Origin: a virus
Lineage: Duplodnaviria > Heunggongvirae > Uroviricota > Caudoviricetes
Length of the DNA stretch: 24,178 nt
IMG/VR virus record: IMGVR_UViG_2537561992_000036
Direction: 5' to 3' (one strand)
A program made the position numbers. Positions 1 through 6,000 of the stretch are shown here, piece by piece; within the stretch, counting starts at the first letter, position 1; each line of letters starts with the position of its first letter.

Positions 1-3000
1 TTACTTCTTCGCCTCTGCAACCACTTTACTACCCACGCCGCGGTTATTGTATTCCCACATGCGGTTGTAGTTAGTGTCATTCAGATTGCGCTGTATTTCG
101 TCGTTATCATCTACGCTGCCGGTATTACCCGCAAACGGACGATTAGAGATCACCGCATCGGCCCACGGTTTAGCCGTGTTAAAACCTTCGTTGATGGCGC
201 TATCACGGATCACCACCTGACCGTTGGTATTGGCATCAACATCCAGCGAGCGGCCCAGTTGCGCCACACCATCACCGAAAGCATTGAAACGGCTGTTTAC
301 GGCGAGGAAACCGTAGTAAATGTTGGACAGCGTAGCCGGTGCAAACACATACGCTTCTTGCTGAGTACGTGAGTTCACCACGCGGAATTCGGTGTTATCG
401 AACACCACTGCGCCGCGACCAGAAACGATATCCACATCCCCTTCAATGTAGCTGTTGGTCACCAGCGTACGCGGCTGACGATTCGTTTCCAGACGGTTCT
501 GCACACCGCTGTTGGTGACAAAGAAGGTGTTCTGACGACCGAGAATGTTAACGTTGTTAATCTGTACCTGGTCACCATCAGTACGCAGTGCCACCGCCGG
601 ATGGTTACCTGCATCTACGCTATCGCCCAGCGTGTTTTCGATGGTCAGATTTTGCAGTTGCAGGCCATTGTTTTGTGACCAGAAGACCGCAGAGCAGAGA
701 ACACCGATACTGTCGCTGCGTTTGCTCTGGCAGCTATCGTACATATACCACGCTGGTTTACCTGGCATATATTTGCCGCGCGGGTTGACGTCGTGACGCC
801 AGTCGGCAGGGCTCATGCCACCATCAAGGGAAAGCCCAATCTTCACATCAATCGGTTTTTCACCTGTACCGTACAGAGTAATTCCACCCGGAGCGGCAGG
901 GACATATACCGTTCCCTGATACTCACCAGGCATCACGGCAATATACTGGCGCTTGTTGGTACGCTTGATAATTGCCGCATCTACCGCCGCCTGAATCGTG
1001 GTATGCGTTACACCTTGAGTGCCCGCCGGGCCGACAACAAAGTCAGGTTGCGCAGGCAGGGTAATCGGGGAAGGATTCCACGCTGCTGCACCTGGTGTCA
1101 GGGATGCAAAATAGTGTTGAGCATCGAAATTCTGCGCTTCTTTTGCCGACAGAATCGGGCGAGAAGAGGTACCAGGCGCGGTTTGATCAGAAGGACGTTG
1201 ATCGGGCGGGGTTGAGCTACAGGCGGTCAGCGTCACGCCAAAAGCCAATGCCAGCGCCAGACGGGAAACTGAAAATGTGTTCACAGGTTGCTCCGGGCTA
1301 TGAAATAGAAAAATGAATCCGTTGAAGCCTGCTTTTTTATACTAAGTTGGCATTATAAAAAAGCATTGCTTATCAATTTGTTGCAACGAACAGGTCACTA
1401 TCAGTCAAAATAAAATCATTATTTGATTTCAATTTTGTCCCACTCCCTGCCTCTGTCATCACGATACTGTGATGCCATGGTGTCCGACTTATGCCCGAGA
1501 AGATGTTGAGCAAACTTATCGCTTATCTGCTTCTCATAGAGTCTTGCAGACAAACTGCGCAACTCGTGAAAGGTCGGCGGATCCCCTTCGAAGGAAAGAC
1601 CTGATGCTTTTCGTGCGCGCATAAAATACCTTGATACTGTGCCGGATGAAAGCGGTTCACGATGAGTAGATGCAATTATGGTTTCTCCGCCAAGAATCTC
1701 TTTGCATTTATCAAGTGTTTCCTTCATTGATATCCCGAGAGCATCAACATGCAATGTTGTAGGGATGGCAATTTTTACGCCTGTTTTGCTTTGCTCGACA
1801 TAAAGATATCCATCTACGATATCAGACCACTTCATTTCGCATAAATCACCAACTCGCTGCCCGGTAACAACAGCCAGCTCCATTGCAAGTCTTAGCCAAC
1901 ATGGTGATGATTCTGCTGCTTGATAAATTTTCAGGTATTCGTCAGCCGTAAGTCTTGATCTCCTTACCTCTGATTTTGCTGCGCGAGTGGCAGCGACCGG
2001 GTTTGTTGTTATATGGCCTTCAGCTATTGCCTCTCGGAATGCATCGCTCAGTGTTGATCTGATTAACTTGGCTGACGCCGCCTTGCCCTCGTCTATGTAT
2101 CCACTGAGCATTGCCGCAATTTCTTTTGTGGTGATGTCTTCAAGTGGAGCATCAGGCAGCCCCCTCCTTATTGCTTTAATTTTGCTCATGTAATTTATGA
2201 GAGTCTTCTGCTTGATTCCTCTGCTGGCGAGGATTTTTTCGTAGCGATCAAGCCATGAATGTAACGTAACAGAATTATCACTGTTGATTCTCGCTGTCAG
2301 AGGCTTGTGTTTGTGTCCTGAAAATAACTCAATGTTGGCCTGTATTGCTTCAGTGATTGCTATCCTCCTGTCTCGGCCTAATCCAAACTCTTTACCCGTC
2401 CTTGGGTCCCTGTAGCAGTAATATCCATTGTTTCTTATATAAAGATTAGGGGGTAAATCCCGGCGCTCATGACTTCGCCTTCTTCCCATTTCTGATCCTC
2501 TTCAAAAAGGCTACCTGTTACTGGTCGATTTAAGTCAACCTTTACCGCTGATTCGTGGAACAGATACTCTCTTCCATCCTTAACCGGAGGAGGGAATATC
2601 CTGCATTCGCGCACCCATCGACGAACTGTTTCAAGGCTTCTTGGGCGTCGCTGGCGTGCATTCCACTCCTGAAGTGTCAAGTACATCGCAAAGTCTCCGC
2701 AATTACACGCAAGAAAAGCCGCATTGATGCGGCGATGGTAGGTCTGGATATCATTGAGCCATGAACAGGCCTCATCGAGTGTGAGGCTGTGGTTAGTCCT
2801 TTCGTAACTCGCTGATTCTCCTGTAAGTCTCTGGTGCTTTGTTTCCGTGTATCTTCATTTCAGACTTCAACAGAGCAACGAGGGAATCCCATTCGTTGAG
2901 GATGCCTTTGAATGCCGGAACGCGCTTTGCAACCTTGTCGAATGAATCTCTGATTTCTGGAATCTTCTCAACAAGTGCAACGCATCGTCGGAAGTCTGCT

Positions 3001-6000
3001 GCGTCATGGGGAGCGCCGAAGTGATGACCATAGATATTCTTTTTCAGGCCACATGCGATTGAGGCAAGAGTTGCGCTACTGATGCCAACATCGCCAGTCG
3101 ATTGCCATTTCAAAACCTTCATAGACAAATCTGACATTTCTTGTCTCCAATAAAAAAAACCTCCATCAGGCGGCTTGGTGTTCTTTCAGTTCTTCAATTC
3201 GAATATTGGTTACGTCTGCATGTGCTATCTGCGCCCATATCATCCAGTGGTCATAGCAGTCATTGATGTTCTCTGCTTCGATAACTCTGTTGAATGGTTC
3301 TCCATTCCATTCACCTGTGACTCGGAAGTGCATTTATCATCTCCATAAAACAAAATCCGCCGTAGCGAGTTCAGATAAAAGAAATCCCCGCGAGTGCGAG
3401 GATTGTTATTCATTGCCGATATTCACCTTTATCGCGAACACCTTTACCGGTTTATCACCGAAGTGCGGATGTGTGATTGTCTTGATTTCATATCCGTCAT
3501 ACGGAACATCAATTCTGCGGCTGGAATCGTCGCGCTTCGGATATCCCTTTGTGATAATCAGGCGGTCATACTCCCGGAACATAATTCGCTTATTCCAATA
3601 GTCATTACACAGGCGATACTCTTCCGTTTTCTCTCCTCGAATCATGGCATCGAAGTATTCACCTTTGACGGCAAGTTGTAGGTTAGCCACGGTTAACCTC
3701 CTGCGGAGTAGCCTTTACAAGCACTGGTGCAAATCCATCTTCATTAAGGTTATGAATATAGACTTCTGTTCTCCTGCGCTCTTCAACGTTTAATATTGTT
3801 TCTGGATCATAAACCCATACTTTCATTCGACTATTCCATGAAGAAATCGCTTCAGATCTAGTTCGTTTTTCTGGTCCTTGGGCACCACATTTGCATGACA
3901 CATAGCGCATTTTCCCTCTGATACTGAATGAGTATCCGATGTTAAGCACAGTGGAACCACAGAATGGGCAGCGATATAGATTCATAAATCATCCACCTTA
4001 GGCGCAGCTGAGACAGCAACATTCCAGAACTCAGAAAACATATTGTATGCACCAGATAGATTGGAAGTAGCATACCCTCCAAGCTCACTTCTAATCTGAA
4101 CGGCTCTCATCATTTCCGGGGTTAACTCCTTCGGCACCATAACCCAACCATCCGGAGTTACCGGAGAGTTGCCACCGGGAATATTTTCCGGAATATTTTG
4201 TTGTGCGTTTTGTGGTTGTTCTGATTTACCCTGAAGCATGGCGGCGCGGCAGGCGTTCCAGCCAGCTGTTCGCCCAAGCGCGTAAACTTCAGATGGATCA
4301 AGATAATCAATGTCATGCCCGTCCTCATCGTCGTTCTCAGGTAATGCAGCAGGTACTACCGGTACTGGCGGAGCGGCGTAGACCTCAATAATTCCATTAT
4401 CAATAGGCCATTCTCCATCCTTGAGGTAGTCACTTGTGCCGTCAACTTGCTGTTCTGCAATGTGGAATGCACCTATTGGTTTTGCTTCCAGCGATGCCAG
4501 AGCAATCCGTGCCAGTTCCATTTGTTCGCCACTAGTAAGTCCGTTATCAAGCGGGGATTTAATGAACAATTCGATACGTTCTTTAGTGATAGTGCTCATA
4601 TCACTCTCCTTTGATGCGAATGCCAGCTGCGCTTGCTGATTCTTCATATGCGCGTTTAGCAGCGTTAAGGATTGCTGCCAGTGGCGTATAGCCGCCATCC
4701 ATTCGGATTGTGTTGTGGATGCCAGCCATTGTGTCGCGCAATTTGCTGTGGCTAGCAGACAGTTCTGCTATGCACTTCTCTGCGGCATCGGCTCGATCTT
4801 TTTCACGCTGGAACATTTTGTGAGTGCGGTCTATAGCTTCGATTCGTGCCGCTGATGTCTTCTGCACGGCTTCAAGCTCAACACGCAGCTTCCCAACCGT
4901 AAGAGCAATATCCTCGTTCTTCTGGTCGCGGCGTTTGATGTATTGCTGGTTTCTTTCCCGTTCATCCAGTAGTGCCAGCACGGTTTCTGGCCCGGTCAGA
5001 AATTTGAAGGCGTTGAGCGCATCAATATCCACACCGTAATCCTTAAGTTCCTGTTCAGTTAACAAATCATCATCAACTGGCAACATTAACAGGCGTTCCA
5101 TTGCCGGAATTGCACGCTCTGCCGCCTCACGCAGTGCCTGATAGTCAATCTTGCTCATTGGATGACTCCTTTACGAAGCTGTTCGGCGATATCTTCGAGA
5201 ACGCCATCAGAGAATGAACGGTCAAAATCGCCTTCCGGCGCATTGGCCATAAACTCAGTAGAGGTAAGAATCATCCGGGCAATATCAGCGGCGTTCTTCG
5301 CAGTATCATCAATAAAACCAGCTTCCCAGGCAGCCAGCATTCTGTTCGCCACAAAGTAAGCGCCCTCCTTGCGTGCTTCAGTCTTCACTTCAGCCAGAAA
5401 AGCATCGGTGGCTGGGGTTTCAGTAATATCATCTTCCCATTCGCTAAACTCCTCACGACAAAAGTCATTAAATTCCTTCTCAGATTGCTTAAGCGAGGAA
5501 TTTTCAGCAGCCATCTTCGCGCATTTAGCCTCAAGGTTATCAATCGTGATTCCAGCAGAACGACACTCCCGCAACGCCGTTTCTAGTTTTGATTCAAGTT
5601 CACCGAACTTACGGACAAGATATTCATCGTTTGTTTCGTCAACCTTTAAATCACTTGGGATGCATTTACCTTTCAGAAAACCATCCATCTCAATTAGTGT
5701 CATTTGTTTCATTTCTTCCCACTCCGCCACATCGCATTCAGATATTTGTTGTCATTAACAGAACCGAAACTCTTTCTCTTAAGCAATTCCTCTCTCGATG
5801 GCATTGGCTTTGCGCGTTGGCGAATAATCATTTCTGCCGGAAGAATGCCGGGATTGTATGCAAGTCCTCTCATGGTAAATTCCTCAGTCATTACTGATAG
5901 CGCCATAGCGTGAGCGGTAATTACGCAGGCGCGGGTCAATTTCAGGGAAGTGGGTATATGTGGCTTTGCGGAATGGTCGGATTGATGTCTGGTAAATTCG

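Follow-up and report, generated by a model that had tools for sequence, protein, structure and literature searches.

Phage 434 holds the closest described counterpart of the locus analysed here, the ORF114 gene and its flanking terminators in a 24,178-nt stretch of viral DNA (IMG/VR record IMGVR_UViG_2537561992_000036, Caudoviricetes; the whole stretch is called the window below). The 434 record M60848.1 annotates int, xis, the terminator t'-I (which it supports with a cited paper), ORF114, ORF55 and the terminator t-L4, the same arrangement as in the window, and in the complete 434 genome (OL657226.1) the interval from xis to the terminator is further annotated with the pI promoter and its CII site. 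The ORF114 protein of 434 is AAA67902.1, its counterpart in phage HK022 is HK022p30 (NP_597889), and the annotations of phages mEp213 and Stx2-1717 cite both HK022p30 and 434 ORF114. The exo-xis genes of lambda (ea8.5, ea22, orf61, orf63 and orf60a, together with orf73 of Stx phages) share this part of the pL operon with ORF114 and, like it, are small and variable among lambdoid phages; the genes of this region are described as dispensable and as modulating phage development, with an effect on host physiology also proposed (PMC10789677). ORF114 differs from them in that it shares no sequence or fold similarity with them, stands outside the set studied so far and is distributed far more widely beyond the lambdoid phages.

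The segment between xis and orf55 corresponds to a known cassette

In lambda, the start of xis (28860-29078) and the stop of orf55 (29118) are 40 bp apart, as against 480 bp in the window (2686 to 3166). When the two are read side by side, homology with lambda stops after CAAGAAAA at 2717 and restarts in the A-run at 3152-3159, leaving an extra segment of about 2718-3153, a net ~440 bp, that holds a single minus-strand open reading frame (ORF). Since each end of the segment falls in an A/T run, its exact position could shift by a few bases. An earlier interpretation made from the window alone (the sequence-only reading) had placed an insertion between xis and orf55 at 2702-3150, and alignment with lambda and other lambdoid phages, as it had proposed, defines boundaries within ~15 bp of that estimate. 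The single minus-strand ORF of 114 amino acids (aa) that it described is found at 2793..3137, and the hairpin with T-run that it saw on each flank is present on the minus strand on both sides, the one next to orf55 being weak in the window.

The same alignments recover this cassette in 434 and HK022. Over 1 kb (2400-3400), sequence identity is 99.4% with 434, 96.8% with HK022 and 99.8% with several Stx1a-converting phages, and a near-identical annotated locus, agreeing on int, is found in E. coli O26 RM10386 (RefSeq). With 434 the window shares the gene, its site between orf55 and xis and the t'I and tL4 terminators, and the two proteins are 99% identical, differing at one residue (G98 in the window, E in 434). 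By sequence comparison, the extra DNA is the ORF114 cassette that the 434 and HK022 records already annotate; it is known and not novel. Literature searches on ORF114, HK022p30, the accession numbers and phrog_1229 gave no match. The features of the locus, all on the minus strand, are as follows.

1-1284, minus: ybhC, an E. coli gene and the flank of the prophage, which sits at attB-lambda
1419..2489, minus: int, lambda-type tyrosine integrase (ORF list; matches 434 and lambda int)
2435..2686, minus: xis, lambda-type excisionase (Pfam Exc, E=2e-34)
2681..2712, minus: pI promoter (transferred by homology from the 434 features in OL657226.1)
2699-2712, minus: CII-binding site of pI, TTGC-N6-TTGC (transferred from OL657226.1)
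2711..2734, minus: hairpin B with T-run, the t'I of 434 (terminator scan, fold, and annotation in M60848.1 and OL657226.1)
2759..2777, minus: second stem-loop, GCCUCA...UGAGGC, without a good T-run, directly past the ORF114 stop (sequence and fold)
2793..3137, minus: ORF114 (HK022p30 homologue), 114 aa, PHROG 1229, predicted seven-helix soluble protein
3145..3148, minus: Shine-Dalgarno sequence GGAG, 7 nt 5' of the ORF114 ATG (sequence; a ribosome-binding site is annotated likewise in 434)
3152..3176, minus: hairpin A and U8, homologue of the lambda t'I hairpin (alignment with lambda, 434 and HK022; folds)
3166..3333, minus: orf55 (lambdap35 homologue, PHROG 676), the upstream neighbour (ORF list, profile match)
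3383..3404, minus: tL4-type terminator hairpin upstream of orf55 (terminator scan; t-L4 in M60848.1, tL4 in HK022 X51962.1)

The ORF114 gene is present in 937 of 5426 complete E. coli genomes (17%) and is full-length in 915. The ORF114-type join, in which pI is followed by hairpin B, occurs in 419 genomes, and the xis and orf55 flanks are carried by ~2000, so that the cassette fills the lambda-type xis junction in about one fifth of cases (~21%). Over half of the ORF114 copies adjoin integration modules other than the lambda type. The sequence-only reading had noted that presence of the gene at this position in most lambdoid phages, in a known routine role, would refute an independently acquired moron; what we find is the occupancy given above, and no function is recorded for the gene.

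The cassette lies between two terminators

On the transcribed strand, the end of orf55 is followed by hairpin A, U8, GGAG, ORF114, a stem-loop, hairpin B, UUUUCUU, the CII site and -35 element of pI, and xis. The boundaries of the extra segment coincide with the T-runs of hairpins A and B. Hairpin B (GCCGCA-UCAA-UGCGGC followed by UUUUCUU, 2733-2718) folds at -10.5 kcal/mol, and the pI region, which the left end of the cassette abuts, is identical in sequence in the window, 434 and lambda. Hairpin A (GCCGCC-UGAU-GGAGG followed by U8, ~3176-3152) folds at -7.5 kcal/mol with a z score of -0.44, no better than shuffled sequence; the HK022 form of this hairpin reaches -13 kcal/mol, and a 51-nt lambda segment that includes a second stem reaches -17.6. 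This weakness in the window and 434 is due to a C-to-A change in the 3' arm (GGCGG to GGAGG) relative to lambda and HK022. An intact form is detected in mEp213, which also has a stem-loop, as at 2759-2777, downstream of ORF114. The weakened hairpin A may ease read-through into ORF114. We further note that the UGA stop codon of orf55 (3166-3168) lies inside the loop of hairpin A, whose 5' arm is made up of the final two Ala codons of the same gene.

The 28 nt between the orf55 stop and the ORF114 start are occupied by the hairpin, the T-run and the Shine-Dalgarno sequence, and the ORF114 start codon, inside the leftward early operon, lies 22 nt past the T-run of the terminator. A scan of 2300-3700 returned three terminator-like sites, and Rfam returned no RNA family in 2400-3500. 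The layout of terminator, gene and terminator is also found in Stx2-1717, in mEp213 and in a Mannheimia phage whose homologue is 33% identical. In Stx2-1717, orf55 is absent and ORF114 lies directly behind two tL4-type hairpins, and in the Mannheimia phage ~10 nt separate the annotated upstream terminator from the start codon of the homologue. The anatomy in the window indicates that the cassette is a unit of Shine-Dalgarno sequence, gene and terminator set in the T-run of a pre-existing terminator, and that hairpin B is a replacement terminator keeping pI insulated. The layout illustrates cassette swapping at the T-runs of terminators, with the pI promoter left undisturbed.

Predicted expression from the leftward early operon

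In lambda, N antitermination acts on the tL terminators and on t'I. The minus-strand gene order in the window is ERF, Abc2, Ea22-like, Lar-like, ASCH, orf55, ORF114, xis and int, which places ORF114 in the pL operon between the recombination genes and xis and on the same strand, as in the exo-xis region. Since ORF114 stands behind a terminator within this leftward operon, its expression should depend on antiterminated pL transcription and not on the prophage state. A crude consensus scan of 2300-3700 found no sigma-70-like promoter on either strand, and none was found in the mEp213 copy. The G+C content of the insert (47.9%) is that of int, xis and orf55 (45.2-48.9%) and of the whole window (47.3%), which rules out an island of foreign composition. 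With no promoter found, flank-like composition, a terminator 22 nt upstream and co-orientation with the operon, ORF114 therefore looks like a delayed-early, N-dependent gene.

In the scheme that we propose, ORF114 would be transcribed only by N-modified RNA polymerase that passes the upstream terminators. It would act as a delayed-early gene of infection or induction and stay silent in the repressed prophage, in which hairpin B would shield pI. We consider a cassette carrying an N-dependent delayed-early accessory gene to be the best overall explanation of the locus, and hold it with moderate confidence.

ORF114 represents a widespread protein family

ORF114 matches phrog_1229, a family annotated as of unknown function, with E=2.2e-51, its residues 1-114 aligning with profile positions 1-113 of 116. 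A profile search of a library of 1.8 billion proteins yielded 2775 cluster representatives at E<=1e-3, which sets the size of the family at no less than 2775 clusters at 50% identity. The ratio of nonsynonymous to synonymous substitution rates (dN/dS) is 0.05-0.19 between the copies of 434, HK022, mEp213 and Stx2-1717, indicating purifying selection. The profile match, these ratios and the number of representatives together argue that ORF114 is not a chance ORF.

In an alignment of 87 diverse members (A4), all of which match phrog_1229, P43, D45, D48, R51, C52 and W83 are invariant and W11, G18, S20, S21, L55 and P60 are nearly so. From the family alignment we define the motif P-x-D-x-x-D-x-x-R-C, accompanied by W11, G18, S20, S21 and W83, which reads PHDAADFRRC in the window protein (residues 43-52) and is carried by 262 of the 288 family proteins fetched. 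An AlphaFold2 model of ORF114 has seven helices and a mean predicted local distance difference test score (pLDDT) of 96.3, and in it most of the conserved residues are found at the N-terminal ends of helices. No signal peptide or membrane or hydrophobic segment was found in the ORF114 sequence or model; a membrane or secreted protein is ruled out by this and by the all-helical soluble model. The E. coli protein is basic, with an isoelectric point of 9.4; the family as a whole is acidic, with a median isoelectric point of 5.8 and a median charge of -2.3. Proteins with two tandem copies of the domain (P0066 and P0190) hint at a dimer. The ORF114 product would be a compact soluble seven-helix protein, probably dimeric, with the invariant P-x-D-x-x-D-x-x-R-C motif as a helix cap.

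Scans of ORF114 against Pfam, NCBIfam and PADLOC gave no match (none at E<=0.01 for PADLOC), and no Pfam model matched any of the 87 diverse members. Sequence profile searches of the PDB with a shallow and a deep alignment found nothing below E=0.3, and Foldseek against viral models returned uncharacterised family members only. The profile search and structure prediction that the sequence-only reading had proposed thus gave a full-length family match and a confident seven-helix model, but not an assignment of function.

The family is found in lambdoid and P22-like phages, in phages of Cronobacter, Yersinia, Mannheimia and Providencia, in ~150 Vibrio phages, in Sashavirus, in Gordonia and Arthrobacter phages and on large Pseudomonas plasmids (~290-520 kb; 109 records). 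Many database copies are truncated or chimeric, being fused to Ea22, ERF, Kil or MazG-like fragments; the Ea22, ERF and MazG-like partners come from neighbouring genes. Among 51 N-terminal extensions, 17 carry a recurrent domain of ~70 aa, four form a zinc-ribbon group and two are tandem duplications; none of these groups points to a function. The ~70-aa domain, with a consensus like VVLGFGPQ...DAV.D..VARMAGA (P0135, P0234 and P0258-P0287), matches no known family, and Pfam scans of 20 longer fusion proteins gave weak zinc-ribbon hints only. One gene with this ~70-aa domain (locus L016, 5001-5600) lies between a PD-(D/E)XK exonuclease (DUF3799) and an AAA_23 ATPase.

Homologues lie mostly in early operons, repeatedly beside unrelated integration modules

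We checked ~25 homologue contexts by hand, and in nearly all of them the homologue belongs to a series of small early genes transcribed in one direction, frequently with stop and start codons that overlap those of its early-operon neighbours. It is the last gene before a lambda-type integration module in the window, 434 and HK022, and before a P22/SfX-type module in SPN9CC, ENT47670 and mEp213. It likewise comes last before the oppositely oriented int of Stx2-1717, the modules of the Mannheimia phage and of Pseudomonas prophages, and a module of DUF4224 and int. The gene thus travels as a unit beside at least four unrelated integration modules, a shared occurrence that fits modular exchange. 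In the P22-like phage SPN9CC, the homologue ends 2 nt before a P22-type xis with no terminator between them; this xis (locus L007, 3854-4204; 116 aa, two differences from P22 Xis) is missing from the annotation of the record.

Homologues often have a recombination exonuclease or annealase as neighbour or no more than a few genes away, and also lie near DNA methyltransferases or Lar-like restriction-alleviation genes, as in the window. Many have no integrase in the fetched neighbourhood. On plasmid p727-IMP (locus L030, 5995-6351), the homologue is closely followed by a gene for a site-specific DNA methyltransferase and is divergent from a helix-turn-helix (HTH) regulator and an integrase. A 152-aa member in Vibrio phage K75 (locus L020, 2372-2830) is on the opposite strand between tape-measure and tail genes.

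A possible early role directed at the host

Lambda and many lambda-like prophages are without the gene, which implies that ORF114 is presumably dispensable for basic growth. Its partners in the operon of the window include ERF, the anti-RecBCD protein Abc2 and Ea22-like, Lar-like and ASCH proteins. With Lar, Ral, Abc2 and Gam, ORF114 shares the type of operon and neighbourhood, small size, solubility and a patchy distribution; it differs from them in having no homology to any of them, and the neighbourhood association is circumstantial. We favour a factor that acts early on a host target for several reasons: the gene is presumably dispensable and patchily distributed, its product is predicted to be soluble, its neighbours are accessory genes directed at the host, and phages and plasmids with a wide range of lifestyles carry it. 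In this proposal, ORF114 would bind a conserved host target or a target in nucleic-acid metabolism early in infection, in host takeover or counter-defence, and would be likened to Lar, Abc2 and other exo-xis proteins and not to a lysogenic-conversion or defence gene. We put forward the host-directed or counter-defence role only tentatively. A narrower version, in which the invariant Asp/Asp/Arg/Cys site is a new binding or catalytic centre and the protein neutralises a conserved host system early in infection (a nuclease, restriction or other defence, for instance), is slightly more speculative again; if true, it would explain why many unrelated temperate phages keep the family as the last early gene before the integration module.

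Several observations weigh against parts of this account. The promoter scan was a crude consensus search, blind to weak or non-sigma-70 promoters, so that expression of ORF114 from the prophage may still occur. The invariant residues are mostly helix N-caps, and may therefore be structural and not a binding or catalytic site. ORF114 matches none of the PADLOC defence models, annotation sources call the family proteins hypothetical, and no annotation or experiment names a function. The associations with methyltransferases, Lar and recombination genes may just mirror the general content of early operons. The place of the K75 member in a tail-gene cluster is moron-like, unlike all the other contexts seen.

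Morons and other alternative explanations

A moron, in the sense of Juhala and Hendrix, is an additional gene that lies between conserved ones and is equipped with a promoter and a terminator of its own. The sequence-only reading took ORF114 for an independently acquired moron, and this view is partly supported by the sequence. The extra DNA between genes that are adjacent in a relative, the factor-independent terminator downstream (hairpin B, the t'-I of 434) and the modular travel of the gene are supported; a private acquisition, a promoter of its own and a foreign composition are not, and ORF114 further differs from morons in its co-orientation with the operon and its place right behind a terminator. 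Gain of the cassette in 434 and its loss in lambda, by exchange between terminator T-runs, would leave the same picture. Homologues lie just upstream of xis or int in P22-like, Cronobacter, Mannheimia and Pseudomonas contexts, which makes loss in lambda at least as plausible. A classical moron, acquired independently and expressed from the repressed prophage to the advantage of the lysogen (in phage defence, superinfection exclusion or host fitness, for instance), would account for the extra DNA and the downstream terminator, for the patchy presence among close relatives, for the int-proximal end of the prophage as a frequent site of cargo-gene build-up and for the K75 member on the opposite strand. 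It would leave unexplained the missing promoter-like site in both the window and mEp213, the start codon so close behind a terminator here and in the Mannheimia phage, the G+C content equal to the flanks, the lack of a PADLOC match and of a signal peptide or membrane segment, and the embedding of most homologues in early operons, including those of phages with no integrase in the fetched neighbourhood. We therefore regard it as distinctly unlikely.

Somewhat less unlikely, if still doubtful, is an HTH-like regulator that binds DNA or RNA polymerase and tips the lysis-lysogeny decision or early transcription, as has been proposed for Ea8.5, Orf63, Orf61 and Orf73. By our own reading, residues 7-28 (KVLKWQSTGDVGISSATLASIA) could form a helix, a Gly-containing turn and a helix as in a classical HTH, and the E. 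coli protein is basic; the homologue on p727-IMP stands directly before a DNA methyltransferase gene, as a controller protein would, and transcription-related roles have been hypothesised for exo-xis proteins (PMC10789677). However, no HTH Pfam model matches any of the 87 diverse members, the family is acidic overall and the putative recognition helix is poor in basic and amide side chains. An accessory factor of site-specific recombination, modulating the activity or directionality of Int and Xis, appears improbable. Homologues do lie immediately upstream of xis and int or within ~2 kb of int in unrelated modules, and the p727-IMP homologue lies next to an integrase, but lambda Int and Xis work without ORF114, many homologues have no nearby integrase, no Exc or HTH_17 match is found in ORF114 or in the Pfam scan of its 87 relatives, and the int-proximal end of the early operon simply gathers accessory genes. 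An identity as excisionase was rejected, ORF114 having no match to a recombination directionality factor domain whereas the adjacent true xis matches Exc. Hardly any weight remains for a decaying or non-functional ORF left over from recombination between terminators. The many truncated and chimeric copies, and the fact that lambda manages without the gene, would fit such a relic, but the low dN/dS, the full-length copies in 915 complete E. coli genomes, the span of the family from phages of Proteobacteria to those of Actinobacteria with invariant residues, and the very confident structure prediction stand against it; a pseudogene is effectively refuted by the conservation data.

Other features of the prophage

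In the window, ybhC is followed by a lambdoid prophage that occupies the lambda attachment site. Compared with 434, its xis has a 1-nt insertion, an extra T at about 2506-2512 (T5 here, T4 in 434, lambda and RM10386). Beyond about residue 59 the reading frame is altered, so that the ORF runs to 83 aa where Xis has 72, and the basic C-terminal tail is lost. In Xis this tail contacts Int. The insertion could reflect an excision-defective prophage or a homopolymer sequencing error.

Two near-identical inverted insertion sequence (IS) copies of the IS3 family, at 9236-10449 (plus) and 14164-15377 (minus), bracket the replication and nin genes; each comprises orfA (108 aa), orfB (296 aa) and the ALIL frameshift pseudoknot RF01497. 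No cI/cro-type immunity genes are evident at ~8600-9236 among the listed ORFs, a list of ORFs of at least 70 aa outside which shorter ones such as cro would fall. The prophage is probably rearranged and defective.

A 319-aa ORF at 17568-18527 (minus), with a signal-peptide-like N-terminus, matches the LpxR family of outer-membrane lipid A deacylases (Pfam E=7e-40). Lying upstream of the gene for the Q antiterminator (18917-19690) and on the opposite strand, it makes a far stronger candidate for a true moron than ORF114 does. At 21164-23028 (plus), a small DUF1737-like ORF is followed by a 513-aa sialate O-acetylesterase-like ORF (NanS-type; SASA and DUF6645), an arrangement known from Stx prophages. 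The interval between Q and this pair is free of stx genes and contains a single 252-aa membrane-like ORF (19859-20617).

Significance of the ORF114 family

As a sequence feature the cassette is ordinary, a classic and long-sequenced lambdoid cassette found again in an E. coli prophage. Its interest lies in the protein, which is common in E. coli, conserved from enterobacterial to actinobacterial phages and on plasmids, confidently folded and without a Pfam family or, in the PDB profile and viral-model fold searches, a structural relative outside the family. Phages 434 and HK022 are genetically tractable, and a function for ORF114 could extend to thousands of "hypothetical" phage proteins.

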